Position numbers and translations under genes: made by a program. This document shows positions 19,275 to 61,146 of a stretch of 64,000 nucleotides of DNA, piece after piece. How positions within the stretch are numbered: position 1 is the stretch's first letter; each line of letters opens with the position of its first letter. The notes beneath the pieces are model-generated. The model ran no database searches. It was not told where the DNA came from and was given only the letters and a program-made list of their open reading frames with translations. Source of the stretch: an uncultured Bacilli bacterium (GTDB lineage: Bacteria; Bacillota_I; Bacilli_A; RFN20; CAG-826); contig CALVSI010000003.1 in NCBI GenBank assembly GCA_944358985.1, positions 41,388 to 105,387 on the forward strand, read 5' to 3'.

Positions 19275-19278
19275 AAAC

Positions 19279-39386: not shown

Positions 39387-39398
39387 TAGGTGGATGCT

Positions 39399-45994: not shown

Positions 45995-46058
45995 AAATAG
46001 TCTTCTGTCAACGCTAAAAAAACTCATTTTCAACATTGCTTGGAAAATAAAAAATGGT

Positions 46059-46087
46059 TTGCATATATACTTATTGTGATTTACAAT
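46059..46087 (+). promoter_or_regulatory. Near-consensus promoter for the 46132-59991 operon
   Basis: TTGCAT (46059-46064), a 17-nt spacer, then TACAAT (46082-46087), about 45 nt upstream of the ATG at 46132. Confidence 0.6.
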
Positions 46088-46131
46088 TTAATTGCACGAA
46101 TAATTAAATAATTATTGGAGGTTAATTGCCC

Positions 46132-48225
46132 ATGAGCAATAAAAGGTTATTCCTAACGGCGTCTATTGTCGCGATTGGTTTAGGTGGTGTTGCTTTGTTA
46201 AGCACGTCACTTTCACAACCTTCCTATAATTTTTCTCAAACAAAAAACATTAATAATGCAGCTAGTATCGATACGAAGAAAAATGCTGAAATAGTTATTG
46301 AAGATTTTGATTTTGAAAACGCTATTGGATTGTCGACAAGTGATTTAAGCATATCAATTACAAAATCATCTATAACTCCTGAAACACAGTCTTATTCTGT
46401 AACATTTTCTTCATCGATTTTGGCTTATGCTAATAGAGATGGAAAAGTTTATGTAACAATAACTGATCCATCATTTAATCCTAATGAACAAGAAACAATT
46501 TCAGATCCAGATTTAAGACCTAGATATCCTGGAGCAGTTTATACTATTACGAATGTTAAAACTAATAATGGATTAGGTGAATCTGTTGTTATTCCTCGTA
46601 CGATGGCAAGAGGTACACAATTTTACATCGATATAGATACAATTTATGAAAACGCTATTGATGAGACCAATAAAGCGAATGTAAATTCCATTGTTATTCC
46701 AAATAACATTGAATATATTTCTGAAAATGCATTTACAGGGTTAACCTTTCCTGACGTTAAAATTTATTGTGAAGCAGATGAAAAACCTGAAGGATGGGCC
46801 GATAATTGGACAGATTGTCAAAATATTGTTTGGGGATATACTCTAACTGAGGAACAAGAAAAAATAGCCACTTATAATGTACAAAGCAATCGTACTTTTG
46901 GTAATGATAGAAATTTCATGCTTGGATATGAAGATGGTGATGGTAGATATTATCCTTTGATTATGAAATATGATTTATTGGATTTATCCACTAATAGCGT
47001 AAGCGAAGAATATGCTGTTCTTCCAATAGATAGCGGAATTAGAAATTATGATGTCAATAGCCGCTATGAAGGTGTTGGAAGTTCTGTTGGTTCTTCAACT
47101 TATACAAAAACCATCGATATAGAAATGAGTGAGTCATATCAAATCCAAGATGACACTATCGTTTTTTATGGTATTTATGATGCCGAAAGAGAAGGACCAG
47201 GTAAACCATATTTTCCTGTTACTACTAATTCCTACTATGCAGGGGCTGGTGTAGGATATGCAATGCGAGAAAACATATCTGATTATATTACTTATGAATT
47301 TGATATGAGTTCTTCTTTTCAAGGCTTTACATCATTGTCAATGAATGTTGATAGAGTCCCTGGCATTTATGAAAAACTTAAAGAATCAACTTATGAAACT
47401 AATAAAGCAAATATCGCTAATGGGTTAATGTCAATTAGATATCGCTTTGTTAACTTAAATTCAATGTATTATCAAATAACATATGAATATAATGGCGAAC
47501 TTATTTCTGTTGATGTTCCAATCAATAGCGATATTCCAAGATATATTTTATCTTATGAAAAAGGAAATTATGTTTCGTTCTTAATTGAAAATTCCACTGT
47601 TGGAGAAGGATTTAACGGATCTAATATTAAAGAATTTTCTCTTGTTGGATTAACTATTTCAATGGATTTATTCACAACAAGTGGGGCAATTGTTTCTAAA
47701 TCATCAACCTCAACAAGATTTGGTGTTATTCCAGTAATTAGAACTGGCACTATGGTTGTACCAGAAGCCAAATCCACCGACAGCGGTACTACAAATTATT
47801 ATTTTGACAGCGTCAACTTCTATAATGGCGATTTAGTATTGATTCTAACTTGCGTTATATTTGCTGTTGTTTTTACATTAGGTGCAGTCGGATTATTCTT
47901 ATATATGAGACACAAATATCGTAATGATGAATTCAGACGTGTAAAACCTAAAAAATTTATTAAATCCGCAATTACATTATTTGCAGGAATGTTAACAGTA
48001 ATTTTAGCTATAATCTTCATTTACTTTAGAAGCGTCCCATTTAACAATGCGATTGTTGTTTTCAATCCTGTCGACATTTATGTCATTGTGTTTGCTATTG
48101 CTTCTGTGCTATTTATTGGCTATTACATTCGATATCTTTTAATAACTGTTAAGGCCGAAAGAGAACGAAGAAGAGTTATAAAATTAAAGTTGGATGAATC
48201 ATCAGATGATGATGGTACAAAATAA
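46132..48225 (+). CDS. Surface-exposed BspA-type leucine-rich-repeat protein with N-terminal signal/anchor and three C-terminal TM helices
   Basis: ORF track 46126..48225; the ATG at 46132 with GGAGG 10 nt upstream is preferred. The LRR_5-like block is VVIPRTMARGTQFYIDIDTIYENAI..VNSIVIPNNIEYISENAFTGL..VKIYCEADEKPEGWADNW. The C-terminal TMs are LVLILTCVIFAVVFTLGAVGLFLY, AITLFAGMLTVILAIIFIYF and IYVIVFAIASVLFIGYYIRYLL, followed by a charged tail. Confidence 0.65.
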   Translation: MSNKRLFLTASIVAIGLGGVALLSTSLSQPSYNFSQTKNINNAASIDTKKNAEIVIEDFDFENAIGLSTSDLSISITKSSITPETQSYSVTFSSSILAYANRDGKVYVTITDPSFNPNEQETISDPDLRPRYPGAVYTITNVKTNNGLGESVVIPRTMARGTQFYIDIDTIYENAIDETNKANVNSIVIPNNIEYISENAFTGLTFPDVKIYCEADEKPEGWADNWTDCQNIVWGYTLTEEQEKIATYNVQSNRTFGNDRNFMLGYEDGDGRYYPLIMKYDLLDLSTNSVSEEYAVLPIDSGIRNYDVNSRYEGVGSSVGSSTYTKTIDIEMSESYQIQDDTIVFYGIYDAEREGPGKPYFPVTTNSYYAGAGVGYAMRENISDYITYEFDMSSSFQGFTSLSMNVDRVPGIYEKLKESTYETNKANIANGLMSIRYRFVNLNSMYYQITYEYNGELISVDVPINSDIPRYILSYEKGNYVSFLIENSTVGEGFNGSNIKEFSLVGLTISMDLFTTSGAIVSKSSTSTRFGVIPVIRTGTMVVPEAKSTDSGTTNYYFDSVNFYNGDLVLILTCVIFAVVFTLGAVGLFLYMRHKYRNDEFRRVKPKKFIKSAITLFAGMLTVILAIIFIYFRSVPFNNAIVVFNPVDIYVIVFAIASVLFIGYYIRYLLITVKAERERRRVIKLKLDESSDDDGTK

Positions 48226-48239
48226 ATAAGGAGTTAGAT

Positions 48240-50168
48240 ATGGAAATTAGAATTAAAGATTTAACTAAAATCTTCCCAGGCGATCCAAAGAAAAACATTC
48301 GTGACACAATTGCTGTCAAAGATTTAGACTTTGTTGTCCCTGATGGTAAATTGGTTGGATTGTTAGGACCTTCTGGATGTGGCAAATCTACAACACTTTA
48401 TATGATAAGTGGTTTGCAAAATCCAACATCTGGAGAAGTTTGGTTTGGTGATCAAGAAGTTACAAATCTATCTCCTGAAAAAAGAGGTATTGGTTTAGTT
48501 TTCCAAAACTATGCTTTATATCCTCACATGACGATTTATAAAAACATCGAATTCCCTTTGACTAATTTGAAAGTCGAAGTACCACTTGTTGACTTTTATA
48601 ATTATGAATATGTAGTTGAACACGATGTAAAAGAAAATGAAAAATTATATTTCTTACAAAAGTCTATTAGATCGTTGATGATGCGTGCTGGATTATCTTT
48701 TAATCAATATAGTGTTCAAATTGAAAAAAACAAAGAACATCCTGATCACATTATAATTCACATTTTGTTAAAGAAAGTGTCAGTGGAAGCTAAAAAATTA
48801 ATAGAAGAAAACTTTCCACTTATTATTAAATCACCTTTAACCTTATTAAAAGAAGAAAAAGCTAGCGAAACACTTTATGATAGTTCGTTTAGAGCCACTG
48901 TTAATAATGTCAGTGATAACGCAATCACATCCTTAACATTTAAAGGCGATTTAACAAAGAAATTTGATGTCGGTAATATTGATGATTTGATTAATAAGAC
49001 CAAAAATATTATAAAAACTAATAAATTTGCTCATATTGAAGGTGTCCTTATTACTAGAACACAATCAGGCGGTTATGAATTGATGGCAATGTTAAATAAT
49101 CTCAATTTCGCAAGAATTGAAGAGTGTGTTAAAGCAATTTCGTCTGTTTATAACTTTAACAGCGTTAATACTTTTATCACTGATATGAAAGATAAAAGTT
49201 TAGAAGTTGTTGTCAAAAATCATTTAAAACAAAACAATATCAAATATTCTGATTTCAAGTTGTATTTTGATAAGAAAAATATCAAATTGTACTTCAAATT
49301 AGTGCGCGTTAGCAAAGAAGGCGCAAAAGATGTTTTAGATGAATTGGCAAAACAATTACAATTAACGGATATCGAATTATCTTCAACGATTGCAATCGCT
49401 CATCGTAAATTGACAAAAGAAGAAAGAAGATCGATTGTTATGTCCACTGCGAAGTTAGTGCAAGTAGATGAATATTTGCAAAGAAAGCCTTCTCAATTAT
49501 CTGGTGGTCAACAACAACGTGTCGCTATTGCTCGTGCTCTTGTTAAACGACCAAGAGTGTTATTATTAGACGAACCATTATCTAACTTAGATGCTCGTTT
49601 AAGATTACAAACTAGAGAAGAAATTCGTCGTATTCAAAAAGAAACTGGTATTACAACAGTTTTCGTCACTCATGACCAAGAAGAAGCAATGTCCATTTCT
49701 GATAAGATTGTCGTTATGAAATTTGGAGAAATGCAACAAATTGACGCTCCACAAAACGTTTATAACGATCCTGCTAACTTATTCGTTGCACAATTCTTAG
49801 GTACCCCTCCAATTAATGTCTTTAAAGGCGAAATTAAAGACAACAAAGTTGTTGTTGGAGATGATGTTGTTTATACATTAAAAGAAAAGGTTGCAGATAA
49901 AAAAGTTTATGTTGCAATACGTCCAGAAGGTTTTGCAATTGCGGATAAGAAAGATAAAGAAGTTTTGCACGCCAAATTATCTATGATTCAAATTCTTGGA
50001 CGCGATATTTCAATGGTGGCAACAAATCCACAGTGTACAAAAGAGACATTTAAAATAATTATTTCAAGTGAAGATCGCACTGATGAAGAAAATCTATCCC
50101 TAAAAGTTAAACCAAATAAGATGTTTATATTTGACGCAGATAGTGAAGAAAGAATCTATATCAAATAG
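48240..50168 (+). CDS. ABC importer ATP-binding protein, MalK/UgpC/MsmX type, with a ~276-aa insertion in the helical subdomain
   Basis: 642 aa. Contains Walker A GPSGCGKST, Q-loop LVFQNYALYPHMT, signature LSGGQQQRVAIARA, Walker B LLLDEPLSNLD, H-loop VTHDQ and a C-terminal TOBE-like domain. Canonical family members are about 360-380 aa. Confidence 0.9.
   Translation: MEIRIKDLTKIFPGDPKKNIRDTIAVKDLDFVVPDGKLVGLLGPSGCGKSTTLYMISGLQNPTSGEVWFGDQEVTNLSPEKRGIGLVFQNYALYPHMTIYKNIEFPLTNLKVEVPLVDFYNYEYVVEHDVKENEKLYFLQKSIRSLMMRAGLSFNQYSVQIEKNKEHPDHIIIHILLKKVSVEAKKLIEENFPLIIKSPLTLLKEEKASETLYDSSFRATVNNVSDNAITSLTFKGDLTKKFDVGNIDDLINKTKNIIKTNKFAHIEGVLITRTQSGGYELMAMLNNLNFARIEECVKAISSVYNFNSVNTFITDMKDKSLEVVVKNHLKQNNIKYSDFKLYFDKKNIKLYFKLVRVSKEGAKDVLDELAKQLQLTDIELSSTIAIAHRKLTKEERRSIVMSTAKLVQVDEYLQRKPSQLSGGQQQRVAIARALVKRPRVLLLDEPLSNLDARLRLQTREEIRRIQKETGITTVFVTHDQEEAMSISDKIVVMKFGEMQQIDAPQNVYNDPANLFVAQFLGTPPINVFKGEIKDNKVVVGDDVVYTLKEKVADKKVYVAIRPEGFAIADKKDKEVLHAKLSMIQILGRDISMVATNPQCTKETFKIIISSEDRTDEENLSLKVKPNKMFIFDADSEERIYIK
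48576..49403 (+). other. Insertion domain within the ABC ATPase (aa ~113-388), four degenerate strand-turn-strand-helix units
   Basis: The insert sits between FPLTNLKV and LTKEERRSIVMSTAKLVQVDEYLQRKPSQLSGGQ. The four units are YSVQIEKNKEHPDHIIIHILLKKVSVEAKKLIEENF, FRATVNNVSDNAITSLTFKGDL..NIDDLINKTKNIIK, IEGVLITRTQSGGYELMAMLNNLNFARIEECVKAISSVY and FKLYFDKKNIKLYFKLVRVSKEGAKDVLDELAKQLQL. Confidence 0.6.
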
Positions 50169-50183
50169 TTATAGGTGAAGTTT

Positions 50184-51257
50184 ATGTTTAAATTGAAGAA
50201 GAAAGAAGAAATGGTGGAAAACGTCAACGTTAACGCTGATGGAACAGCGGTTCTTTCTGACACGACTTATAACGAAGAAGAAAACGTTGTTGTTAGACTC
50301 ATTTCTCATCGTAAAAACAAAAAACCTTATCAAATTACTGGTATTGAAGATGTCAGTGCTAAAAACAATTGGAAAGCCTGGCTATATCTTGGACCAGTTA
50401 TAGTTTTAATCGCAGTATTTTTGATTTATCCTTTGATTAACACTATTTTTATCGCCTTTACTGAAAACTATCAATATGCATCTGGTCAATTTGATGGTTT
50501 CACATTAAATAACTTTGGTGTTATTTTAAATTTGACACCGACAGCGTTAGGAGTTCACGAAGAATATTTTACTAGATATGCTATTCCTAACACCTTTTTA
50601 ATCGTTTTTGTAACTGTTCCTATTTCAACCTTATTAGCGTTAATTATTTCAGTTGCTTTAAATTCTATAAAATGGTTCCAAAAAATATTACAAACAGTAT
50701 TTTTCTTACCATATGTTACTAACGCTATCGCGGTTGGTATGGTTTTCAGCGTTATATTTGATGATCATGGTATTATCAATTATATTTTCAATACTGATAT
50801 AACTTGGATTTATGGTGCTCAACCAATGACCGCTATGATTCCACTTTGTTTATACATCATCTGGTCCTCCATACCATTTAAAATTTTAGTTTTCTTAAGT
50901 GGTTTACAAGGAATTGATAAGCAATATTATCAAGCTGCTCAAATCGATTCTTGTAGTCGTGGTAAAGTATTATGGAAAATTACTGTTCCATTATTATCAC
51001 CTCAAATACTTTATATTCTTGTTACAAGCTTTATTGGTGCGTTTAAAGAATATACTTCTGTTGTTGGTTTGTTCGATGGACCTGGAACAATGGGTGAAAA
51101 TGGTGATCCAAATATGGAAACAATCGTTTTCTATATTTATGATAAACTTGCAAATCAAACTTCATTAGCGGCAGCAGCTGCTGTGTTCTTGTTTGTTATT
51201 ATCTTATTATTTACGTTATTACAATTCGCGGTTTCTAAATCGCGTGTCCATTATTAG
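50184..51257 (+). CDS. ABC importer permease (MalF/UgpA-like) with ~65-aa cytoplasmic N-terminal extension
   Basis: ORF track 50175..51257 starts at GTG; the ATG at 50184 with AGGTGA upstream is preferred. Six TM segments with an EAA-like loop: GIDKQYYQAAQIDSCSRGKVLWKITVPLLSP. Confidence 0.85.
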   Translation: MFKLKKKEEMVENVNVNADGTAVLSDTTYNEEENVVVRLISHRKNKKPYQITGIEDVSAKNNWKAWLYLGPVIVLIAVFLIYPLINTIFIAFTENYQYASGQFDGFTLNNFGVILNLTPTALGVHEEYFTRYAIPNTFLIVFVTVPISTLLALIISVALNSIKWFQKILQTVFFLPYVTNAIAVGMVFSVIFDDHGIINYIFNTDITWIYGAQPMTAMIPLCLYIIWSSIPFKILVFLSGLQGIDKQYYQAAQIDSCSRGKVLWKITVPLLSPQILYILVTSFIGAFKEYTSVVGLFDGPGTMGENGDPNMETIVFYIYDKLANQTSLAAAAAVFLFVIILLFTLLQFAVSKSRVHY

Positions 51258-51271
51258 GAAGGAGGCAGTTT

Positions 51272-52273
51272 ATGGAAAAAAACAATTCGTCTAATAAAAA
51301 AATAAATAAACCTGTAAATAGTTCTCCTTATCCTATTTTTGCACCAGATGTTGATTCAATTGTAATTTCAATAGAAGAAGCTGGTCGTACAGTGGATTCA
51401 ATCAAAAGACAAGAAAAAGTCACACATATTATTTCAACGATATTGACTTATATATTTATCGTTGCACTTGCTCTTGTCGTTATTTTCCCATTTTATTGGA
51501 TGATTATTACATCTTTAAAACAAAATAGCGAAATTACAAATGTTAATCAAACGTTTTTCCCAACAATAGTGATGTGGTCAAACTATGTTTACGTTTTCCA
51601 AGTATTCGATTTTGTCACATTTATGGGTAACACTATTGTTGTTGCGATATTCTCAACAATTGGTACATTATTGACGACCATTTTTGCGGCGTTCGCGTTT
51701 GCAAGATTAAAATTTAAAGGCCGCGAATCATTATTTTTAGTCTTCTTGATGACTATGATGATTCCTGGCGAAATGATGGTCATTTCCAATTATGTTACCG
51801 TTGCTTCTTTTGGTTGGATTGGTGAAGGTCAAACACTAATTGAAGCTTACGCTGCGATGATTGTTCCTTTCTGGATCAGCGTCTTCTACATTTATTTATT
51901 GCGTCAAAACTTTAAACAGATTCCTAATGAACTATACTTGGCCGCGAAAGTGGATGGAAAATCAGATTGGAGTTTCCTTTGGAGAGTTATGGTTCCATTA
52001 GCAATGCCAACATTGATTTCTATTACTATTTTGAAATTTATGGGAACATGGAATTCTTACGTGTGGCCAAATTTGGTTACTCAAGAAGAATCCTTTAGAC
52101 TTATTTCTAATGGTCTTAGAAGTTCAAGCTTCGTTGATGTCGACTCAGGACAAACAGAATATGGTTATCAAACCGCTGCAACGATGCTTGTCACTGTCCC
52201 GTTATTCTTATTATTCGTCTTCTTTAGAAAATACATCATGCGTGGTGTTGGAAGAGCGGGTATTAAAGGATAA
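51272..52273 (+). CDS. ABC importer permease (MalG/UgpE-like) with ~55-aa N-terminal extension
   Basis: 333 aa with an AGGAGG SD. EAA-like loop is IPNELYLAAKVDGKSDWSFLWRVMVPLAMP. Confidence 0.85.
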   Translation: MEKNNSSNKKINKPVNSSPYPIFAPDVDSIVISIEEAGRTVDSIKRQEKVTHIISTILTYIFIVALALVVIFPFYWMIITSLKQNSEITNVNQTFFPTIVMWSNYVYVFQVFDFVTFMGNTIVVAIFSTIGTLLTTIFAAFAFARLKFKGRESLFLVFLMTMMIPGEMMVISNYVTVASFGWIGEGQTLIEAYAAMIVPFWISVFYIYLLRQNFKQIPNELYLAAKVDGKSDWSFLWRVMVPLAMPTLISITILKFMGTWNSYVWPNLVTQEESFRLISNGLRSSSFVDVDSGQTEYGYQTAATMLVTVPLFLLFVFFRKYIMRGVGRAGIKG

Positions 52274-52335
52274 TAAAATTGATTATTATAATGCTTACAT
52301 TATTTTAAAAAAAGACTTATATTTTGGAGGTATTT

Positions 52336-53823
52336 ATGAAAAAAAGTCGAATAATGCTAATGTTGCCTGTCGCACTTGCCATGTTATTAGCATCTTGTGG
52401 TCCAAACAATGCTGGTAGCACAACTAGTGTTGCTGGTGGTGGATCAGGCGGAGGTTTTGTTAAAGAAAAAACCGATATATATTTTTGGCACACATTTTCT
52501 TATGTGACAGAGCTTGAAAATATTGTCAACGCATTTCAAAAAATCGAACCAAATGTCACTGTTCACTTAGAAAAACAAAATGGTGGATATGATGGATTAA
52601 AAACAACAGTAATTAACGGTATTGCTGCTGGAAACACTCCTGATTTAGTTCTTGCTTATCCAGATCATGTCGCAGAATATCTTGATTATGGTATTGCTGT
52701 TGATGCAGATCCTTACATTAATAATGAAGAATATGGCTGGACCGAAGAAGAATATAATGATGTCATTCCAAATTTTATGGAAGAAGGTCAATCTTACAGC
52801 ATTCCTGGTACTTATTCCTTGCCTATGGCTAAATCCACTGAAGCAATGTTTTATAATGAAGATGTTTTAATTGGTTTAGACTTGTCTGCTTATGATTCCA
52901 CTATTAACAATGGTGAAGCTTTGGATGCTGATTATTTAAATAATCTTACTTGGGAAGAGTTGTTCAAAAAATTATGTCCAGCAATTACTGCATATAACGA
53001 TGCTCAACCAGCAACTGAAAAGATTTTATTAGAAAATGAAGCTTATCATGGTATTTTTGCATACGATAGCGATGATAATTTATTCATCACACTCGCTAAA
53101 CAATATGGTTATGGATATACCGCTTTAAATGAAACAACAGGTACTGGTGAAATATTATTCAACAATCCTGAAATGAAATCTTTAATGAAAGTATTTAATG
53201 ATGCTGCAAATAAAGGATATATCATTACTAAAGGTACTTCTGGTGGCAATTACACCAATGAATTCTTTACAAAACAAAATACTTTATTTTCAGTAGGTTC
53301 CACTGGTGGATATAAATATCAAGTCGCTGATACTTTCGATGTTGGTGTTGCTAATATTCCAAGAGCAGAAGGCAAAGACTATTATGTTATCAACCAAGGA
53401 CCATCTATTGCTATGTTAGAAACTAACAAAGCTAATACTGAAAATCGTAAATTAGCAACTTGGTTGTTCTATAAATTCCTAACAAATGCTGAAAATACTT
53501 TATATTGGGGAACTCAAACAGGATATATGCCAGTTCGTTTATCCAGTTATGAAAGCGATGCTTATCTAGACTACATTAGTTTAGAAGGTAAATCAGAATA
53601 TTCCCCTGAATTATTAGCTGCTAAAGTTGGTGTTTATAGTCAAACAATCGCAAGCAGTGGTTCATTATTTGTTTCCGCAGTATTTAAAGGAAGTTCAACA
53701 GCTCGTCAACAAGCCGCTTCTGTCATGAGCCAAGTCTTACTTGCTTCTAAAGAATTGTGCACTGACAATTGGTTGAATGGTATTTTTGAAACAGCAGTCA
53801 ATCAAACAAAATTAGCAATGTAA
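52336..53823 (+). CDS. ABC substrate-binding lipoprotein 1 (family-1 extracellular solute-binding protein)
   Basis: ORF track 52324..53823 starts at TTG; the ATG at 52336 with a GGAGG SD is preferred. Lipobox is MLLASC and the Gly/Ser tether is GPNNAGSTTSVAGGGSGGG. Blocks shared with the next gene are IYFWHTF, AYPDHVAEYL, AMFYNEDV and LTWEE. Confidence 0.8.
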   Translation: MKKSRIMLMLPVALAMLLASCGPNNAGSTTSVAGGGSGGGFVKEKTDIYFWHTFSYVTELENIVNAFQKIEPNVTVHLEKQNGGYDGLKTTVINGIAAGNTPDLVLAYPDHVAEYLDYGIAVDADPYINNEEYGWTEEEYNDVIPNFMEEGQSYSIPGTYSLPMAKSTEAMFYNEDVLIGLDLSAYDSTINNGEALDADYLNNLTWEELFKKLCPAITAYNDAQPATEKILLENEAYHGIFAYDSDDNLFITLAKQYGYGYTALNETTGTGEILFNNPEMKSLMKVFNDAANKGYIITKGTSGGNYTNEFFTKQNTLFSVGSTGGYKYQVADTFDVGVANIPRAEGKDYYVINQGPSIAMLETNKANTENRKLATWLFYKFLTNAENTLYWGTQTGYMPVRLSSYESDAYLDYISLEGKSEYSPELLAAKVGVYSQTIASSGSLFVSAVFKGSSTARQQAASVMSQVLLASKELCTDNWLNGIFETAVNQTKLAM

Positions 53824-53852
53824 ATTGTTAGATTATTTAAGGAGGCAATTAC

Positions 53853-55319
53853 ATGAAAAAAACTACACTCATTGGTTCATTAGCACTTCTAGCAACATTA
53901 GCTACAAGTGCTTGTGGACCTAATAATAATGGTGGCGATGGTGATACAGTCAATATTTATTTTTGGCATACTTTTGGTCAAACCATCGTTGAAACACTCG
54001 AAAGAAAAATTAATCAATTCGTTGATTTAGTTGAAGAAAACGAAGGCGTTAAAGTTCAAATTCATTTGAGCAATTCTGGTTCTTATGACGATATTTTAAA
54101 GAAAATTAATGATGGATTTGCTGCTGGTAACATACCCACGATGGCGGTCGCTTATCCAGATCACGTCGCAGAATATTTAAATCGCGAAACCTACGCTGGA
54201 CAATATGTTGTAAATCTTCAAACTATGGCGGATAACGAAGAATACGGTTTTAATACTCAACCATATTTAGGCGATAGTGCTGGCATGGATGACTTTGTTC
54301 AAACTTATATTGATGAAGGCACACATTATGCTAGAGAAGGTTTATATTCTATTCCATTTATGAAGTCTAGCGAAATTATGTTTTATAATGTTGAAGCTGT
54401 TCAACTAGCTCTTAATGGTAATAGCGAATTCACAGGTTATCGTCCAGAATTTGCCGGAAGTGAAGATCAAATCAACGCTTTCTTAAGAAATTTAACTTGG
54501 GATGAATTTATGGATTTCTGTGAATTCATCAATGCGAATAAGCAATATATTTCTAACACTATTGAAGTTCCTGCATATTATGATAGTGATGCAAACTTAT
54601 TCATTTCTAAAATGTTCCAAAACAACGTTCCTTATTCTAGCGTTAATGAAGATGGAAGTGGAAATGTTGATTTTAAAGATGGAGAAGCTTTGCAAGCCGC
54701 AAAAGATATTGTTAGAGAATTAAAAGAAGATTTTGATAAAGGTTTATTTACCACTAAAGGTGTTAAAGGCACTTATGGTAGTAACGACTTTACTCAAATC
54801 AAATCAATTTTCTCTATTGGTTCAACTGGTGGAACTGGATATAACGTTCCTGCTAGTGATGCTTTTACCGTCGGTGTTGTTAAAGTTCCTTATGACAACA
54901 CTCCAATGTATGTTTCGCAAGGACCAACTCTTTGTATAATGAATTCTTCAACTATTAGCGAACAAGAAAATTCAATGCGTGTTCGTTATGCATGGGAATT
55001 CATTAAATATTTAACTAATGCTAATAATAATGTTGAAATATGCATTAATGGTAGCAATGGTTATGTTCCAGTTAGAGAATCAGCATATGAAACAGATGAT
55101 TTCATGGCTTTTATTGAAGGTGGAGATATTTACGCTGAAGCCTCACGTGTCTCTTTTGAAGACATCGATAACAACTTTATTGTTACTCCTGTTTTTAAAG
55201 GTAGTGCAACATTAAGAGATGAAGGCGGAAGCATTCTTGCCAGCGTCTTTAGAAATACTAAAGATATTGATACAGCCTTTGATGATGCTATCAATGAAAC
55301 ACTATTAGCAATGAGCTAA
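53853..55319 (+). CDS. ABC substrate-binding lipoprotein 2 (diverged paralog of the previous gene)
   Basis: 488 aa with an AAGGAGG SD. Lipobox is LATSAC and the tether is GPNNNGGDGD. Shared blocks are IYFWHTF, AYPDHVAEYL, IMFYNVEA and LTWDEF. Confidence 0.8.
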   Translation: MKKTTLIGSLALLATLATSACGPNNNGGDGDTVNIYFWHTFGQTIVETLERKINQFVDLVEENEGVKVQIHLSNSGSYDDILKKINDGFAAGNIPTMAVAYPDHVAEYLNRETYAGQYVVNLQTMADNEEYGFNTQPYLGDSAGMDDFVQTYIDEGTHYAREGLYSIPFMKSSEIMFYNVEAVQLALNGNSEFTGYRPEFAGSEDQINAFLRNLTWDEFMDFCEFINANKQYISNTIEVPAYYDSDANLFISKMFQNNVPYSSVNEDGSGNVDFKDGEALQAAKDIVRELKEDFDKGLFTTKGVKGTYGSNDFTQIKSIFSIGSTGGTGYNVPASDAFTVGVVKVPYDNTPMYVSQGPTLCIMNSSTISEQENSMRVRYAWEFIKYLTNANNNVEICINGSNGYVPVRESAYETDDFMAFIEGGDIYAEASRVSFEDIDNNFIVTPVFKGSATLRDEGGSILASVFRNTKDIDTAFDDAINETLLAMS

Positions 55320-55336
55320 TAAGAAAGGAAAATTAG

Positions 55337-56782
55337 ATGCTAAAATTTACTCGTAAAATTCCTTTGTTAGCTATTTTAGGTGTCGTGATGATTTCATTAG
55401 CGTCATGTACTCCTGATACTACTTCTACTCAGCCAGAATGGATAGATTATGTAAATGATGGTTCTGTTAGTTTGAAGTTAGATTATGAAGAGCATGATTT
55501 CTATACAGATGGAATTGGTCAAGTTACTGTCAAATACGAAAAACAATGTATTGATGGTGATACAGTCCACTTTGATCCAATTGTCACCACAACTAGTAGC
55601 GAACGTATTAAATCCCGTTTTTATGGTGTTGATACACCAGAATCAACTGGTAAAATTCAACCATGGGGTAAACAAGCAAGCGATTTCACTCATGAAAAAG
55701 TTTGGAATGCAGTGCAAAATGGTACGGTAGTTCTTTCCTCACCATATAATGACTATCACACTCCAGAACCAGATTCTACTGGTGAAAGATATGTCACCCT
55801 TGTTTGGATTAATGAAACAGTTAAAAATGCTCCTAAAGAAGACTTAATATTATTAAATTTAATGTTAGTTCAAGAAGGATATTCTACTGCTAAAAACGTT
55901 ATGGACTTCCCAGAAATGGCAGATACATTTACTGCCGCGGAAGCTCAAGCGAAAGCCTTCCAATTACATATTCATAGTTCTGAAAATCCACCAGGATGGA
56001 ATGACGGCGAATATCGTGTTGATGTCTCCTTGTTGGATTTAAAAATTGAAATTGAAAAGACTTTAGAAGATCCTGATTATATTCCAGAATATAATAATGA
56101 AAAAATTACATTTACTGGTACAGTTGCTGGATTTGCAAACCATATTCTTTATTTAGTCCAATACTTTACTGAAGAAGAAGGAGCCCGCTATCCAGAAGGA
56201 GAATATGCTGGAATTAATATTTTCGTCGGCATGTCTGATCCACCATCAAAATATAGAGAAAGAAATGCCTTTATTCAGGTTAGTGGAACAGCTGTTTATA
56301 GCAATTTTGGCTTCCAAATAACCGATACTGAAGGACGTTTTCCAAATACTATTTCTTATAGTGATTCTGATGCAAAAGTATTATTAACACCAGAAGAAAA
56401 TATTGATGAAGATTCACTCTATACATTTGAATATACACGCGAAGAATTAAACGATGTTGTTACTTTAAAAAATTATGAATCTTTAAATACCGCTGTTAAG
56501 GTAACTGAACCATTAGTTGTCCAAGATGTCTATATTGCTGCTAACAATGAAATTACAGTTTACTTTGAAAATTGTGAATTCAATGCATATGTTTGCTTTA
56601 TGTACCGTGGTAATCCTGATAAACCAAACGAATATTGGTATACTGAAGAACAATGGATTGGAAAACGTATGTATATCCAAGGCATTTATACCTATCATGA
56701 TTCCGTCAGCGGAAGAAGAAGTTGGCAAATTAACCCAACAAATAATGCAGACTTTGTTTGGGCGGATGCGCCTACTGCCTAA
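55337..56782 (+). CDS. Membrane-anchored lipoprotein nuclease: staphylococcal (thermo)nuclease domain plus C-terminal tandem OB-like module
   Basis: 481 aa with lipobox ISLASC. SNase catalytic and Ca-binding pattern is CIDGDTVHF..IKSRFYGVDTPES..GERYVTLVW..NLMLVQEGYSTA. The C-terminal OB-like pattern is ITFTGTVAGFANHILYLVQ..GINIFVG..NAFIQVSGTAVYSNFGFQIT. Confidence 0.8.
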   Translation: MLKFTRKIPLLAILGVVMISLASCTPDTTSTQPEWIDYVNDGSVSLKLDYEEHDFYTDGIGQVTVKYEKQCIDGDTVHFDPIVTTTSSERIKSRFYGVDTPESTGKIQPWGKQASDFTHEKVWNAVQNGTVVLSSPYNDYHTPEPDSTGERYVTLVWINETVKNAPKEDLILLNLMLVQEGYSTAKNVMDFPEMADTFTAAEAQAKAFQLHIHSSENPPGWNDGEYRVDVSLLDLKIEIEKTLEDPDYIPEYNNEKITFTGTVAGFANHILYLVQYFTEEEGARYPEGEYAGINIFVGMSDPPSKYRERNAFIQVSGTAVYSNFGFQITDTEGRFPNTISYSDSDAKVLLTPEENIDEDSLYTFEYTREELNDVVTLKNYESLNTAVKVTEPLVVQDVYIAANNEITVYFENCEFNAYVCFMYRGNPDKPNEYWYTEEQWIGKRMYIQGIYTYHDSVSGRRSWQINPTNNADFVWADAPTA

Positions 56783-56803
56783 ATAATATAAGGGGAGTTG
56801 TTT

Positions 56804-57283
56804 ATGTTATATTGTTCAAATTGTGGTAAAAAAATCGATGAAAAAAAAGTTGAAGCTAAATTGAATTCTTTAGTTTCTCAACAAAATGTTATTAACGATC
56901 AAACTGTAGTCGTTTATGTTTGCCCACGCTGCGAACATATTATTCATCGTGATTTAGATGAAAATGACGTTAAACAACTCTCACGTGCAGCACACGCTGA
57001 AATACAAAGAAGTAATAATTTCTTTTCATCAGGGATGGGTAATGTAGTTACTGGAGTTATTGCTTTAGCGATTGCTATCATCTTTTATTGCTTATCGATT
57101 GATTTGCAAAATCAAATGATTTTAGATACCCAATGTGCTGAATTTTATGTTTTCATTGTTTTAACAGTCATCGGTGGAGCAATGTTTATTGTTGGTCTCG
57201 TGTTGGCTATATTTGGTGCGGTTAAAAAACACCATTATTATAGTCTACTTGATGATATCAAAAATAAGACTTTTATCCAGTAA
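56804..57283 (+). CDS. Zinc-ribbon membrane protein (N-terminal CxxC..CxxC, two C-terminal TM helices)
   Basis: ORF track 56798..57283 starts at TTG; the ATG at 56804 with GGGGAG upstream is preferred. The zinc ribbon is CSNCGKKI..CPRCEHI. The TM helices are VVTGVIALAIAIIFYCL and FYVFIVLTVIGGAMFIVGLVLAIFGAV. Confidence 0.55.
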   Translation: MLYCSNCGKKIDEKKVEAKLNSLVSQQNVINDQTVVVYVCPRCEHIIHRDLDENDVKQLSRAAHAEIQRSNNFFSSGMGNVVTGVIALAIAIIFYCLSIDLQNQMILDTQCAEFYVFIVLTVIGGAMFIVGLVLAIFGAVKKHHYYSLLDDIKNKTFIQ

Positions 57284-57345
57284 AAGTCATTCATCATTTA
57301 TCTTGTTAAAAGATAATATTGCGATAAAAAATATAGGAGGAAATT

Positions 57346-59991
57346 ATGAAATTAAAACTATTACCAATCGCATTACTTGCTGTTGTTAGCCTTGGTTTAG
57401 CAGCTTGTGACAATAATGTTACAAGTTCCACAAGCACAACATCATCACAACAAGTTGTCGTTGAAACGTTTAAAATTTCAAACAAAGATGCCTTAACCGC
57501 AGCATGGGGATTAAATCAAGGCAATCGTCAAATTAATTTTGAAATCGTTCCAGAGACAAACATTAACACAGCAATCAGTTCTGGTGCATTAAAAATTACA
57601 TCCAGCAATACTGAAGTTGCTACAATTGCTAATCGTATGATTATGCCACAAGGTGTTGGTACAGCCACGATTAGTGCTTCTTATGGTGGTTTAACAGATA
57701 GTGTTGATATTACCATAAGCGAAAATGTCACCATGAAATTAAAAGATGTCAGAGCAGGAATTTCTTCTGGTGATATCGCAGAAGGCGATAAAGTTTCATT
57801 TAATGGTAAAATTACCGCGACTATGGCAGAAAGCGACATCGGAGATGGCGTTTATGTTCAAGATGGCGAATATGCATTAATGATTTATGGCGGTGACTTA
57901 GAAAAATTATGGAATGCTGGTGATTTTGAAATTGGTGATACCGTTCACGTTGAAGGTTCATTATCTCCATTTAATGGTTTAAACGAAGTTCAACCAACTA
58001 TTTTTGAAGAAGTTAGTGATACAACTATTGCAGAACCAACTGCTTTAACAATTACCGCTGATAATTTCTCAGCTGGTGCTCTTGCCGGTCAAGATGGACG
58101 TTTATTCGTCGTCGAAGATGCAAAATATGTTGATGGTGAAGTTAATATCGGAAGTCATTCAACAATTAATTTTGCCTTAGCTAACGCTGACGGTGTTGAT
58201 GTTACACTTCCAGTTCGTTTAAATTACCACACCGGTAATGATGAAATGAATATGTTTAAAGGCATTGTCGATGCTTTAGAAAAAGGCGATTTAGTCGATC
58301 TTTATGGTGTTATTAGTTGGTACAACTTACCACAATTATCACCACAATTCTTAGCTGATAAAACTGTCAGTGAAAACATTGTTCCAGTTGAAACTTTAGC
58401 TAATCCATCCGCTGTTACAATTACTGGCGAAGATAGTATTGCAACTGGAAATAGTGTTGTATATAGTGCAAGTGTCACTCCAAGTAATGCTAATCAAGCT
58501 GTTACTTGGACAAGTAGTGATACAAGTGTTGCAACCGTTAATCAATATACTGGTTCTGTTTCACCTCTTAAAGAAGGTAAATTTACTTTAACCGCTACTA
58601 GCCGTATTGATAATGAAGTCAAAGGCACAAAAGAAATTAACGTTATCGTTGATGCTGATGCTCCACAAGTATTAATTAGCGAAGCCGAAGATGGCAAAAC
58701 TTACTTATTTGGTGTCTACCAAGGAAATACTGGTTCAACATTATTTGCTAATGGATCTATAGCTGATGAATACTATTTAGCAACAACAACCGACTATAAT
58801 GAAGCCATTGAATTCACCGCTCATAAGAGTGCTGATGGCAAATGGTCATTTGAAAGTGAAAAAGGTTATTTAGCTTTAACTGCAAAAGATAATGGTGATA
58901 ATGGTGCAAATCCAACTTATAGTACAACTGAATTCTTGTTTGACTATAATTCAACTTATAATACCTATACTGCAGAAGTCGTCGTTCCAGGTCATGAAAG
59001 TGAAGCAAACACTTATTACATTGGAACTTATAAAACTTATACTACTTTAAGTGCTTCCGCTATTTCTTATGCAGGTGGAAGTTTCGTTGGACATCTTTAT
59101 ACTTTTGAAGAACAAGTTATTCCACCACAACCAGAACAACCAACAAAAGTAACTGAATTAACTGCTGGTACTTATAAATTAGGTATGGAAGTTGCTGCTG
59201 ATGATATTAGATATATTACTGGCGAAATGGTTAGTACTTATTACTTTGGCACAATGCCCGATTATAATAAGTCACAAGATGTTACTGTTGCTGCAAGTGG
59301 TGATGGCTGGACATTCCAATTAGATAACGGTAAATATATTGGTGCAGTCGTCGATGGAACTCATACTAACAATGTTTTCCAAGAAACCCCATATGTTTGG
59401 AACTATGATGCCACAAATGGTATTTGGACTGTATTAGAAGAAACAACAGTTTATTTAGGAAACTATGGTAATTACACAACAAGCATTGCTTTAAGAGAAT
59501 CTGTTGATTTCCATTGTTTCTTCTATACTGGTGATGTAGCTTCTGTTGAAGTTCCTGAACCAACATTGGTCACTACTCCTGTTAGTGGTCAATCCTATTT
59601 ATTTGGCCTTTATCAAGAACAAGAAGCAACATATTATTACGCTACTGGTTCAATGGCAGGATACTATATGGGTACAACAAGTGATTACACTCAAGCTAAA
59701 GAAATCATCGTAACTGCTTCTGGTGAAGGCTGGATTCTTCAATTTGAAGGTGGTAAATACATCGGAAGTGCACAAAGTGGTACACATTATAATGTCACTT
59801 TGGTTGACACCGCTGAACAAGCCACAGTTTGGACTTATAATACTCAATATAATTGTTTCCAAGCCCTTATAGGTGATACAGAATGTTGGATGGGCACATA
59901 TGGTCAATATAACACAATCGGCGGTTACACAATGGACAAGATTAGTGAAACCAATCAATATCATGCTCATTTATACACAATGGATGCCTAA
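57346..59991 (+). CDS. 881-aa surface lipoprotein: two Big_2-like Ig domains, tandem OB-like module, three tandem copies of an unassigned ~130-145-aa domain
   Basis: AGGAGG SD. Lipobox is LGLAAC and the tether is DNNVTSSTSTTSSQQ. Big_2-like segments are LKITSSNTEVATIANR..GVGTATISASYGGLTDSVDITI and VTWTSSDTSVATVNQYTGSVSPLKEGKFTLTATS. The OB-like pattern is VSFNGKITATMA..GVYVQDGEYALMIYG..IGDTVHVEGSLSPFNGLNEVQ. Confidence 0.75.
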   Translation: MKLKLLPIALLAVVSLGLAACDNNVTSSTSTTSSQQVVVETFKISNKDALTAAWGLNQGNRQINFEIVPETNINTAISSGALKITSSNTEVATIANRMIMPQGVGTATISASYGGLTDSVDITISENVTMKLKDVRAGISSGDIAEGDKVSFNGKITATMAESDIGDGVYVQDGEYALMIYGGDLEKLWNAGDFEIGDTVHVEGSLSPFNGLNEVQPTIFEEVSDTTIAEPTALTITADNFSAGALAGQDGRLFVVEDAKYVDGEVNIGSHSTINFALANADGVDVTLPVRLNYHTGNDEMNMFKGIVDALEKGDLVDLYGVISWYNLPQLSPQFLADKTVSENIVPVETLANPSAVTITGEDSIATGNSVVYSASVTPSNANQAVTWTSSDTSVATVNQYTGSVSPLKEGKFTLTATSRIDNEVKGTKEINVIVDADAPQVLISEAEDGKTYLFGVYQGNTGSTLFANGSIADEYYLATTTDYNEAIEFTAHKSADGKWSFESEKGYLALTAKDNGDNGANPTYSTTEFLFDYNSTYNTYTAEVVVPGHESEANTYYIGTYKTYTTLSASAISYAGGSFVGHLYTFEEQVIPPQPEQPTKVTELTAGTYKLGMEVAADDIRYITGEMVSTYYFGTMPDYNKSQDVTVAASGDGWTFQLDNGKYIGAVVDGTHTNNVFQETPYVWNYDATNGIWTVLEETTVYLGNYGNYTTSIALRESVDFHCFFYTGDVASVEVPEPTLVTTPVSGQSYLFGLYQEQEATYYYATGSMAGYYMGTTSDYTQAKEIIVTASGEGWILQFEGGKYIGSAQSGTHYNVTLVDTAEQATVWTYNTQYNCFQALIGDTECWMGTYGQYNTIGGYTMDKISETNQYHAHLYTMDA
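58666..59988 (+). repeat. Three tandem protein-domain repeats inside the 57346 lipoprotein gene (aa ~441-588, ~600-730, ~741-881)
   Basis: Columns shared by eye are GKTYLFGVYQ / GTYKLGMEV / GQSYLFGLYQ; YYLATTTDYNEA / YYFGTMPDYNKS / YYMGTTSDYTQA; SADGKWSFESEKGYLA / SGDGWTFQLDNGKYIG / SGEGWILQFEGGKYIG; YYIGTYKTYTT / VYLGNYGNYTT / CWMGTYGQYNT. The repeats end in HLYTFE / FFYTGD / HLYTMD. Confidence 0.7.
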
Positions 59992-60016
59992 TTAAACATA
60001 TAAACCCAAAAAACAC

Positions 60017-60046
60017 AAGTAAGGCTGGGAGACCAGCCTTACTTTT
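60017..60046 (+). terminator. Strong rho-independent terminator ending the 46-60 kb operon
   Basis: AAGTAAGGCTGG (60017-60028) pairs with CCAGCCTTACTT (60033-60044) around a GAGA tetraloop, followed by a T-run. Confidence 0.85.
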
Positions 60047-60108: not shown

Positions 60109-60184
60109 GGACCGTTAGCTCAGCTGGCAGAGCAACTGACTCTTAATCAGTGGGTCATAGGTTCGATTCCTATACGGTTCACCA
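60109..60184 (+). tRNA. tRNA-Lys, anticodon CUU, with encoded CCA
   Basis: A 76-nt cloverleaf folded by hand. Acceptor GGACCGT pairs with ACGGTTC (one G-U). D arm is GCTC-AGCTGGCA-GAGC. Anticodon arm is ACTGA-CTCTTAA-TCAGT, with CTT at positions 34-36. T arm is ATAGG-TTCGATT-CCTAT. Discriminator is A, followed by CCA. Confidence 0.9.
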
Positions 60185-60196
60185 ATTAAACTATTC

Positions 60197-60225
60197 CCAC
60201 TGATTAAGCGTCAGTGGCTTTTTTT
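60197..60225 (+). terminator. Rho-independent terminator after tRNA-Lys
   Basis: CCACTGA (60197-60203) pairs with TCAGTGG (60211-60217) around a 7-nt loop, followed by a C and then T7. Confidence 0.8.
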
Positions 60226-61072: not shown

Positions 61073-61146
61073 TTTTTTTATATTATTTCATTTTAGTATA
61101 ATATATACTAATTATTGGTCAATTTAACTATTATTTGGAGGAAAAT

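Follow-up and report, generated by a model that had tools for sequence, protein, structure and literature searches.

A conserved gene block linking a predicted lipid-anchored nuclease and OB-fold lipoproteins to a UgpB-like ABC importer in uncultured gut Bacilli: a candidate system for the use of extracellular nucleic acid

What does an ABC importer carry when its genes are linked to those of a nuclease and of OB-fold lipoproteins? This question was raised by a locus of an uncultured Bacilli bacterium (assembly GCA_944358985.1, contig CALVSI010000003.1), lying in a window, i.e. the whole analysed stretch of DNA, of 64,000 nucleotides. The initial annotation described nine genes on one strand and ORF calling bore this out: nine ORFs, with the sizes and order given there, occupied positions 46126-59991 of the plus strand and encoded a membrane protein (g1), an ATPase (g2), two permeases (g3 and g4), two substrate-binding proteins (SBPs; g5 and g6), a nuclease (g7), a zinc-ribbon protein (g8) and an OB lipoprotein (g9). 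The start codons of g1, g3, g5 and g8 were moved to a later ATG, guided by RBS position (46132, 50184, 52336 and 56804, respectively). Once these starts were adopted, intergenic gaps amounted to 14-62 bp, as had been claimed, and each of the nine genes was preceded by its own RBS. The features of the locus were the following:

46058-46087, plus strand: promoter-like site; no other non-coding gap of notable size precedes g1
46132-48225, plus strand: g1, membrane protein of 697 aa, heading the cluster in 66 of the 66 loci with enough flank
48240-50168, plus strand: g2, MalK/UgpC-type ABC ATPase of 642 aa, present in 68/68 loci
48549-49403, plus strand: insert of ~280 aa in the helical subdomain of g2 (aa 104-388), splitting the ABC domain
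50184-51257, plus strand: g3, UgpA/MalF-type permease, present in 70/70 loci with a median identity of 68 %
51272-52273, plus strand: g4, UgpE/MalG-type permease, present in 70/70 loci with a median identity of 78 %
52336-53823, plus strand: g5, substrate-binding lipoprotein 1, lipobox LLASC, assigned to the UgpB clade
53853-55319, plus strand: g6, substrate-binding lipoprotein 2, lipobox ATSAC, paralogue of g5
55337-56068, plus strand: N-terminal part of g7, lipoprotein signal (SLASC) and SNase domain (Pfam SNase, 2.7e-9)
56069-56779, plus strand: tail of g7, modelled as two OB folds (aa 245-335 and 336-481; tail-only model, pLDDT 93.9)
56804-57283, plus strand: g8, 159 aa, N-terminal CxxC...CxxC zinc ribbon and two TM segments, present in 75/75 loci
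57346-59991, plus strand: g9, OB lipoprotein of 881 aa, variable across loci
60017-60044, plus strand: 12-bp hairpin 3' of g9 (-20.7 kcal/mol, z -6.0)
60109-60184, plus strand: tRNA-Lys (CTT)
60197-60226, plus strand: canonical intrinsic terminator 3' of the tRNA-Lys, an 8-bp stem followed by CTTTTTTT

The promoter-like site reads TTTGCA-18-TACAAT, or TTGCAT-17-TACAAT in an alternative register. Its earlier description as near-consensus was not upheld: nine of 12 consensus positions were matched (3-4 of 6 in the -35 hexamer and 5 of 6 in the -10 hexamer), and such sites were not enriched in the region, with 83 found against 85 expected from shuffles. Position alone makes a promoter upstream of g1 plausible. 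Since the stretch separating g1 from the RDD-family gene before it contained no predicted terminator, read-through from that gene into g1 is possible, and a search for internal terminators in the block returned no convincing candidate. What had been called a strong terminator after g9 proved to be a strong hairpin, but one without a plus-strand U-tract; since its T-run sits on the minus strand, it is regarded as an imperfect terminator of the plus strand. The tRNA-Lys located further downstream is possibly co-transcribed with the cluster. For the nine genes we infer a single transcript.

Comparison across genomes, a check proposed in the initial annotation, supported the nine genes as a conserved unit. 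Related loci were collected by nuclease similarity, so that co-occurrence was tested mainly in one direction; g1-g8 were kept in all informative loci, representing at least 80 species-level genomes, and the order was colinear in 79 of 80 loci. Among loci with enough flank, g1 was present in 66/66, g2 in 68/68, g3 to g5 in 70/70 each, g6 in 73/73 and g8 in 75/75, and nuclease identity among conserved loci fell as low as 41 %. One locus (L081), retrieved independently via a divergent ATPase, displayed the same block. A g9-type lipoprotein with one to seven OB copies came after g8 in 74 loci. Some species displayed OB domains fused onto the nuclease itself, and in others a second lipoprotein gene (LTD+SNase) was inserted within the block.

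The intact staphylococcal-nuclease motif set and tandem OB-like tail previously attributed to g7 were both recovered, the latter at the fold level. The Pfam SNase match (PF00565) cleared the cut-off, and the AF2 model compared with SNase structures in Foldseek gave TMt values of 0.82-0.86. Residues D73, D75, T76, R94, D99, T100, E102 and R151 were invariant among 23 homologues; by motif context, we take D75, D99, T100, R94, E102 and R151 to be the equivalents of D21, D40, T41, R35, E43 and R87 of S. aureus. The catalytic set (DGDT, R94, DTPE and R151) is intact, and cleavage activity is predicted. The tail was present in 79/79 nuclease orthologues and its secondary-structure order fits a five-stranded OB barrel. 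In Foldseek searches of the PDB, the top matches of the tail model included the tandem-OB SSBs of Deinococcus and Thermus, the p202 HIN domain, OB domains of AspRS and LysRS, TEN1/STN1 and PriB; all top matches were OB proteins (E 1.5e-4 to 3e-2, probability up to 1.0, TMt up to 0.58). The tail thus consists of two OB folds of the SSB/TEN1/aaRS type.

The lipoprotein g9 has the 881 aa first reported. It is composed of a Big_2-like domain (aa 30-128), two OB domains (129-232 and 233-345), a Big_2 domain (346-437) and three C-terminal repeats of ~145 aa (438-590, 591-735 and 736-881), which were confined to 11-14 loci. The profile of its OB copies matched RPA32 (1e-4) and STN1, and 10 of 71 g9-type OB copies matched Pfam tRNA_anti-codon (PF01336). 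OB domains of nucleic-acid type were confirmed by profile in g9, for which nucleic-acid binding is predicted. As for the OB module said to be common to g9 and the g7 tail, the presence of OB domains in both was borne out, but their sameness is only weakly suggested: hhalign gave 38 % probability (E 3e-4) over the first tail domain only, and BLASTP found nothing. For g8, the zinc ribbon and two TM segments described earlier were found again; searches of Pfam and NCBIfam returned sub-threshold zinc-ribbon matches and no family match.

Both g5 and g6 carry Pfam SBP_bac_8, and their description as paralogous lipoproteins was accurate (33 % identity, E 7e-73). Their ligand class was addressed, as had been suggested, by comparing orthologue profiles with the PDB, which pointed to organophosphate/dinucleotide binders and not to sugar binders. 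M. tuberculosis UgpB, Thermus 7C0F and E. coli UgpB were the top matches of g5, each at E ~1e-17, with the best sugar binder at ~1e-10 (2e-10). For g6, 7C0F came top (7e-18), E. coli UgpB reached 2e-11 and a GPC binder 8e-5; no sugar binder fell under E 1e-3, the only structures to pass being UgpB-clade members. These profiles support a position of g5 and g6 in the UgpB clade, apart from sugar binders. In this clade, two Tyr and two Ser coordinate the phosphate (PMC12718374). Invariant Y85, S167, S322 and Y397 of g5, and Y78, S172, S324 and Y404 of g6, align with these phosphate-contact residues; the quartet appears to be kept in both proteins, the mapping being a profile alignment and not a structure. 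It also aligns with the matching residues of 7C0F, with a spacing in agreement with the published 64/143/266/342. The counterparts in M. tuberculosis UgpB are presumably Y78, S153, S272 and Y345. A single conserved Trp (LTWEE / TWDEF) was found in the region of the Trp-Trp clamp of G3P/G1P binders. As to named families, 14 of 21 g6 orthologues matched NCBIfam lipo_P68 and nine matched UgpB; matches of g5 (1e-17) and g6 (6e-13) to NCBIfam 'P68 family surface lipoprotein' and of g5 to Pfam 'Mycoplasma MG185/MG260 protein' (3e-4) were under cut-off.

The ATPase had been called oversized, which its ~280-aa insert confirms. Read by eye, the translation seems to contain Walker A, Q-loop, LSGGQ, Walker B and H-loop, and the C-terminal part corresponds to a MalK-like regulatory region. 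The insert was constant in length in 69/69 orthologues and had no match in the PDB and Pfam; just 10 representative proteins among 1.84 billion matched it, and it is restricted to the lineage of this locus. NCBIfam ranked UgpC first for g2 (3.9e-103, split over two stretches), UgpA for g3 and UgpE for g4, all far under the equivalog cut-offs. The two permeases carry Pfam BPD_transp_1 and display the N-terminal extensions noticed earlier, of ~55 aa (cytosolic) in g3 relative to UgpA and ~47 aa in g4 relative to UgpE.

The view of g1 as an LRR surface protein with three TM segments had to be revised. Four TM segments were found, one N-terminal and three C-terminal, enclosing an ectodomain of ~530 aa, and the LRR character was limited to a short BspA-type LRR_5-like stretch (aa ~150-240). 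Pfam LRR_5 reached E 0.022 at best, under cut-off and with no threshold-passing repeat array, and similarity to LRR_5 proteins spanned 6-15 % of g1 for nearly all matches (24 % at most). Orthologues were found in 68 loci; the LRR-like module was absent from a ~500-aa class (~19 of the full-length orthologues) and this segment is dispensable. The g1 core had no match in Pfam and the PDB. The cytosolic loop K-Y-(K/R)-N-D-E-F-R-R of g1 is invariant, and the protein also has DDDGTK at its C-terminus.

Nuclease-linked ABC transporters have a genuine precedent in mycoplasmas, as named in the initial annotation (PMC3585158). In M. agalactiae, the P80 binding protein, the SNase MAG_5040 and the ABC transporter are co-transcribed, the transcript being polycistronic by RT-PCR (PMC3585158). 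According to the published model the nuclease supplies the importer with nucleic-acid precursors, the substrate being unproven, in agreement with what had been noted before (PMC3585158; PMC9740415). Operons of this kind comprise MAG_5030 (P80)/MAG_5040/MAG_5050-5070, MPN133-136, mhp379 of M. hyopneumoniae and MHO_0730 of M. hominis. They share with the present locus a lipoprotein SNase adjoining a same-strand CUT1-type ATPase, two permeases and a lipoprotein SBP. The order differs, being SBP-nuclease-ATPase-permeases in mycoplasmas and g1-ATPase-permeases-SBP-SBP-nuclease-Zn-ribbon-OB lipoprotein here. Unlike the mycoplasma operons, the locus encodes a pair of binding proteins. The published mycoplasma descriptions that were consulted do not include a tandem-OB tail, an OB-repeat lipoprotein, g1, a zinc-ribbon protein or the 280-aa insert of the ATPase. 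Its host is not a mollicute and carries wall-synthesis genes (a Mur ligase and a Wzy_C protein). The proposal of an expanded mycoplasma-type version holds for the combination of nuclease, SBP and ABC transporter; with a differing order, only 10 relatives of the insert and sub-cut-off family scores, the components are at most putative orthologues of the mycoplasma genes. No description of the expanded eight-to-nine-gene version was found in the literature searched. The idea of a nuclease feeding an importer is already published for mycoplasmas, and the locus is a new variant of it.

Among solved proteins, the best relative of g6 and joint best of g5 is 7C0F, the U3G (UpG dinucleotide)-binding protein of Thermus thermophilus (Chandravanshi et al., FEBS J 2021, via the SI of PMC12718374), likewise placed in the UgpB clade of CUT1. 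It is the only dinucleotide-binding SBP reported, and its physiological ligand is itself uncertain. It shares the Tyr/Ser phosphate contacts with g5 and g6, and its ligand, a dinucleoside monophosphate, is the kind of product that nucleases leave. The two lipoproteins are ~80-90 aa longer than 7C0F, their two Ser positions lie ~35 aa further apart, and the alignments are partial, local and of low identity. UgpB proteins (E. coli 4AQ4, M. tuberculosis 4MFI/6R1B and marine 9LFF) belong to the same clade, and the permeases and ATPase of their systems are of the same type as g2-g4; unlike in UgpB systems, the genomic partners here are a nuclease and OB proteins, not a glycerophosphodiesterase. A surface-anchored nuclease with nucleic-acid-type OB folds, like g7, is also encountered in B. 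subtilis YhcR and S. sanguinis SWAN (PMC4118848). Both of these are sortase-anchored single large proteins, and descriptions of them mention no link with an ABC importer. YhcR reportedly combines OB folds with an SNase domain, yields 3'-nucleotides and bears a 5'-nucleotidase domain of its own, a domain absent from the locus.

Taken together, it seems reasonably probable that the block is a surface system that uses extracellular nucleic acid and imports phosphorylated mono- or dinucleotides. The OB lipoprotein g9 and the OB folds of g7 would hold DNA or RNA on the external face of the membrane, where the lipid-anchored SNase, with its catalytic residues intact, would cut it. SNase-type enzymes release 3'-phosphorylated mono- and dinucleotides. 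The phosphorylated products would be bound by g5 and g6 and passed to permeases g3 and g4, with g2 powering uptake; g1, g8 and the g2 insert may be accessory or regulatory parts restricted to the lineage and, as a speculation, the invariant cytosolic motifs of g1 might dock on the g2 insert. Solved members of the UgpB clade bind G3P, glycerophosphocholine or the dinucleotide UpG. One pathway is favoured by how strictly nuclease, OB lipoprotein and transporter stay linked across deep divergence, and likewise by the OB-nuclease fusions and the extra nuclease genes. Uptake of intact nucleotides is documented in M. mycoides, with no gene assigned (PMC6609329). As counterweights, UgpB-clade proteins mostly bind G3P or glycerophosphodiesters, and the possible ligands of OB folds include oligosaccharides and proteins as well. 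Only tentatively, and with more doubt than confidence, may the block be proposed to import phosphorylated nucleotides or dinucleotides intact, as the first bacterial importer of this kind to be identifiable. In such a nucleic-acid utilisation locus, polymer captured by the OB lipoproteins would be trimmed by the tethered nuclease, and the two UgpB-like SBPs would pass 3'-phospho mono- or dinucleotides to an ABC transporter whose ATPase would be controlled via the insert and via g1, a four-TM partner. The original reading as nucleic-acid capture and salvage was supported in part: the unit, the nuclease and the OB folds were retained and the clade of the SBPs agrees with it, whereas the mycoplasma orthology is putative at most.

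The main rival to nucleotide import is glycerophosphodiester uptake: a true Ugp-type importer of sn-glycerol-3-phosphate/glycerophosphodiesters, with the nuclease and OB proteins fulfilling a separate phosphate-scavenging or defensive function in a shared transcription unit. We consider it unlikely, yet it accounts for several observations. The g5 profile matched GPC-binding and G3P-binding UgpB as strongly as 7C0F, a protein that, per the abstract of its paper, is said to bind GPC as well, at a second site; NCBIfam placed UgpC, UgpA and UgpE first for the transporter genes. In M. pneumoniae, MPN134-136 are annotated as a G3P Ugp transporter and a mutant in the nuclease-lipoprotein MPN133 grew poorly on glycerol. 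Order RF39, related to the host, is without fatty-acid synthesis (PMC6784871), so that gut Bacilli of this type may need lipid precursors. Against such uptake stand the strict linkage, the fusions and the additional nuclease genes inside the block; moreover, the dinucleotide binder was clearly a nearer relative of g6 than the G3P and GPC binders were, and no glycerophosphodiesterase gene lies within the block. Some genomes (L054 and L010) carry an additional, plainer CUT1 cluster without nuclease, a candidate for their ordinary system of sugar or Ugp type.

Import of dephosphorylated products (nucleosides, deoxyribose/ribose), after the action of a separate surface phosphatase or nucleotidase as assumed in classical nucleoside-salvage models, appears improbable. 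CUT1 systems typically carry sugars, and in M. bovis nucleoside uptake was connected with a UgpE-like permease of a gts-type operon (PMC12838404). Directly downstream of the block in L081 lies a gene with a faint 5_nucleotid_C match; in the lineage of the window, however, this place is taken by PFOR, and the conserved genes of the block include neither a phosphatase nor a nucleotidase. The Tyr/Ser quartet apparently retained in g5 and g6 is that of a phosphate-binding clade, and sugar binders failed E 1e-3 with the g6 profile and did not beat 1e-10 with that of g5. It is very improbable that the genes are adjacent merely because a small genome that rearranges slowly has conserved its synteny, with no joint function. 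The window and L081 do share macro-synteny with rpsL-rpsG-fusA-tuf, and a gene pair unrelated to the block (up2/up1) is also a frequent neighbour, but this pair switched from upstream to downstream in 10 loci while g1-g8 stayed intact and colinear. The tight gaps and the RBS of every gene also oppose mere adjacency, as does the combination of nuclease, SBP and ABC transporter having arisen or persisted in mycoplasmas in another gene order.

The cargo of the nuclease-linked ABC transporters of mycoplasmas is a question two decades old. For the import of phosphorylated mono- or dinucleotides favoured here, the locus supplies many diverse g5/g6 sequences and a lead, the closest solved relative being a dinucleotide binder; the ligand question is directly testable with recombinant proteins. 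The g1 core, the g2 insert and g8 may reveal new regulation or added subunits of a type I ABC importer. The uncultivated order RF39 is an example of the reduced-genome gut Bacilli found widely across human gut metagenomes, whose import needs bear on cultivation. The hosts of the block are uncultured gut Bacilli with small genomes. The samples behind the related loci were from human and animal gut and from rumen.

The nine plus-strand genes at 46126-59991 (g1 to g9) probably capture and cleave extracellular nucleic acid, a function that would be coupled to the import of phosphorylated breakdown products. The core of this idea, a nuclease feeding an ABC importer, is already published for mycoplasmas. 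M. agalactiae co-transcribes the lipoprotein P80, the SNase MAG_5040 and an ABC transporter, and its nuclease was proposed to supply the importer (PMC3585158); this proposal was repeated in reviews for M. pneumoniae, M. hominis, M. bovis and M. hyopneumoniae (PMC9740415). The precedent named in the initial annotation is genuine. In Firmicutes, YhcR-type OB folds are also known from surface nucleases. What is new here is an expanded and strictly conserved gene set, its OB modules and a link to a dinucleotide-binding relative, together with three conserved parts without a match in the libraries searched (the g1 core, the ATPase insert and g8). Searching the literature on RFN20 or RF39 combined with nuclease terms retrieved no description of the g1-g9 block.

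Nine genes on one strand had been announced from the sequence and nine ORFs were found, all on the plus strand:

g1, 699 codons, membrane protein
g2, 642 codons, ATPase with a large insert
g3, 360 codons, permease
g4, 333 codons, permease
g5, 499 codons, binding lipoprotein (lipobox LLASC)
g6, 488 codons, binding lipoprotein (lipobox ATSAC)
g7, 481 codons, lipoprotein nuclease (lipobox SLASC)
g8, 161 codons, zinc-ribbon protein
g9, 881 codons, last lipoprotein (lipobox GLAAC)

Shine-Dalgarno positions favoured later ATG starts for g1 (46132), g3 (50184), g5 (52336) and g8 (56804), and with these starts the intergenic gaps were 14-62 bp, as short as previously indicated. The near-consensus promoter that had been proposed matched at best nine of the 12 consensus positions and lost that description; promoter-like sites were not enriched in the region (83 observed versus 85 expected from shuffled sequence). 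The site upstream of g1 is plausible by position only, solely because it lies in the single sizeable non-coding gap. The leader upstream of g1 showed no riboswitch. The strong terminator reported after g9 was retained as a strong hairpin (60017-60044, -20.7 kcal/mol, z -6.0), but one with the T-run on the minus strand. Two further features followed:

within 60109-60226, plus strand, tRNA-Lys(CTT), flanked by the post-g9 hairpin and the sole canonical plus-strand terminator
60197-60226, plus strand, canonical terminator, 3' of tRNA-Lys(CTT)

Since the only canonical terminator on this strand comes after the tRNA, the latter may be co-transcribed with the block.

Scanning one genome per species with the nuclease alignment yielded 266 relatives, of which the best 80 were kept as loci (L001 to L080). 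All 80 derived from metagenome bins of gut or rumen origin that were either mislabelled or assigned to Bacilli, Bacillales or Erysipelotrichaceae; among them were Clostridium sp. CAG:288, Ca. Enterosoma and Ca. Onthovivens, at least the first of which belongs to GTDB order RFN20. Synteny was assessed by tblastn. Among those of the best 80 with enough flank, g1 was present in 66/66 loci, g2 in 68/68, g3, g4 and g5 each in 70/70, g6 in 73/73 and g8 in 75/75. Gene order was colinear in 79 of the best 80 loci, with nuclease identities as low as 41%, and a g9-type lipoprotein followed g8 in 74 loci. As these loci had been chosen by nuclease similarity, an additional one (L081) was fetched through a divergent ATPase as an independent look; block and rpsL-tuf neighbourhood were both the same there. 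Further ATPase fragments matching the g2 insert lay on contigs too short for gene context. A gene pair (window 43864-45994) encoding a 366-aa protein without Pfam match and a 345-aa RDD-family membrane protein, with an eight-nt overlap, was located directly 5' of g1 in 46 of the loci L001-L080 and 3' of the g9-type gene in ten, shifting position around the block as one unit.

The nuclease g7 matched Pfam SNase (2.7e-9), and the motif set described as intact was invariant across 23 homologues (D73, D75, T76, R94, D99, T100, E102 and R151). The full model (pLDDT 87.9) resembled SNase structures with TMt 0.82-0.86; its PDB fold search was swamped by SNase mutants and uninformative on the tail, which was modelled alone instead (pLDDT 93.9). 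Sequence and profile searches with this 250-residue tail gave no match in Pfam or PDB, and its identification came through fold comparison only. The best PDB matches were OB-fold proteins throughout, including the two-OB SSBs of Deinococcus and Thermus, the p202 HIN domain, TEN1/STN1, the anticodon domains of Asp/Lys/Asn-tRNA synthetases, PriB and RMI2. On this ground the tail is a tandem OB module, as had been suspected, and it was found in 79/79 nuclease orthologues from the best 80 of 266. In five loci a second lipoprotein nuclease gene (~380 aa, lamin-tail domain LTD plus SNase) was encountered between the g7 and g8 orthologues:

L064:11420-12568
L065:10500-11651
L072:11420-12568
L075:11419-12549
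L080:11461-12600

Some nuclease orthologues reached 670-824 aa; in these, the usual tandem-OB tail is followed by fused OB domains of the g9 type (L076:9980-12454 and the homologues P0083, P0091, P0093 and P0111).

The last lipoprotein, g9, displayed the order Big_2-like, OB, OB, Big_2, followed by three ~145-aa repeats. A profile of its first OB domain detected 210 copies in 76 ORFs, with one to seven per protein, and matched RPA32 (1e-4), STN1 and YhaM in the PDB; ten of 71 g9-type OB copies were accepted as Pfam tRNA_anti-codon OB domains. It had been held that g9 carries the same module as the g7 tail. OB domains are indeed present, but the likeness was weak: BLASTP of the tail against g9 gave no significant match, and hhalign aligned the g9 OB profile with the first tail domain only (38% probability, E 3e-4).

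The ATPase g2 is a complete MalK/UgpC-type protein whose helical subdomain holds a ~280-aa insert, constant in size in 69/69 orthologues. The permeases g3 and g4 are UgpA/UgpE-like and carry the N-terminal extensions previously noticed. The binding lipoproteins g5 and g6 share 33% identity and are ancient paralogues. Their ligand class was examined by searching orthologue profiles against the PDB:

g5 profile: M. tuberculosis UgpB, 7C0F and E. coli UgpB all ~1e-17; sugar binders 2e-10 or weaker
g6 profile: 7C0F 7e-18, E. coli UgpB 2e-11; no sugar binders at 1e-3

Both accordingly belong to the UgpB clade. According to the supplementary information of PMC12718374, 7C0F is a Thermus protein binding uridylyl-3'-5'-phosphoguanosine. 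Two tyrosines and two serines holding the phosphate are strictly conserved in G3P, GPC and U3G binders, in contrast to glucose binders (PMC12718374). The corresponding positions were invariant in our alignments (g5 Y85/S167/S322/Y397; g6 Y78/S172/S324/Y404), and together with the clade placement they indicate a ligand most likely bearing a phosphate or phosphodiester group. The NCBIfam name 'P68 family' was set aside as a sign of identity with P80, M. bovis 'P68' being a P48 homologue.

The main rival reading, uptake of glycerophosphodiester or G3P by this transporter, seems rather unlikely. It agrees with the depiction of the M. pneumoniae transporter as a G3P system and with the MPN133 mutant, which is impaired on glycerol. 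Import of nucleic acid breakdown products agrees with the relationship to 7C0F and with the variations of the block (OB fusions and the extra LTD+SNase gene), which all stay within nucleic-acid-related domains. Intact nucleotides are taken up by M. mycoides, an activity without assigned gene (PMC6609329).

A paralogous CUT1 ABC cluster, consisting of an ATPase and two permeases, was observed a few kb downstream of the block in two related loci (L054:15061-19979 and L010:18198-21254); the stretch seen contained no nuclease. In L054 it also included one binding protein, 25% identical to g5, and its ATPase insert was only ~118 aa; in L010 the ATPase halves were ~40 bp apart, leaving essentially no insert.

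Three conserved parts resisted classification. The profile of the ATPase insert had no Pfam or PDB relative, and only ten relatives were found among 1.84 billion representative proteins. The g1 protein, taken earlier for an LRR surface protein with three TM segments, displayed one N-terminal and three C-terminal ones; its LRR_5-like stretch is short and real, but below the Pfam threshold and missing from ~500-aa orthologues. Invariant features were a cytosolic loop K-Y-K/R-N-D-E-F-R-R and a C-terminal DDDGTK. A word-index search gave six full-length homologues, LRR_5 proteins swamped an alignment search, and the core profile had no Pfam or PDB relatives. TM2 and the K-N-D-E-F-R-R loop (window 47800-47900) showed a likeness over 51 residues (E 7e-4) to a chain named 'transmembrane protein, putative' in 7w5z_M and four other entries; this may be chance. 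The zinc-ribbon protein g8, with two TM segments, was conserved everywhere. The strict co-occurrence of g1, the insert and g8 suggested, as speculation, that these parts influence the transporter at its cytosolic face.

The window is chromosomal, with rpoB, rpoC, rpsL, rpsG, fusA and tuf upstream of the block; among its products are a Mur ligase and a Wzy_C protein, which indicate a host that makes a cell wall. The standard genetic code is used (stops TAA 34, TAG 7 and TGA 1 in 42 ORFs). AGG-to-Met recoding, known in family CAG-288 of GTDB order RFN20, was rejected for the window: AGG occurred three times per 10,000 codons versus 212 for ATG, which puts the organism outside the recoding clade of that family. 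An ORF at 10055-12115 displayed the full EF-G domain set; if the 695-aa ORF at 39390-41477, which adjoins rpsL/rpsG/tuf, is the canonical fusA, as assumed from position and size, two EF-G-type genes are present in the window. At 14917-21096, Pfam gave no match at E 1e-5 for a run of three large ORFs (809, 629 and 605 aa). Rfam RF00557, the ribosomal protein L10 leader, scored 49.4 bits at 25513-25596, presumably ahead of rplJ-rplL. The next large gene downstream of the block encodes an 1185-aa pyruvate:ferredoxin oxidoreductase (~61135-64000, running off the end), also found downstream in a related locus (L001:15711-19268); it is unrelated to the block.
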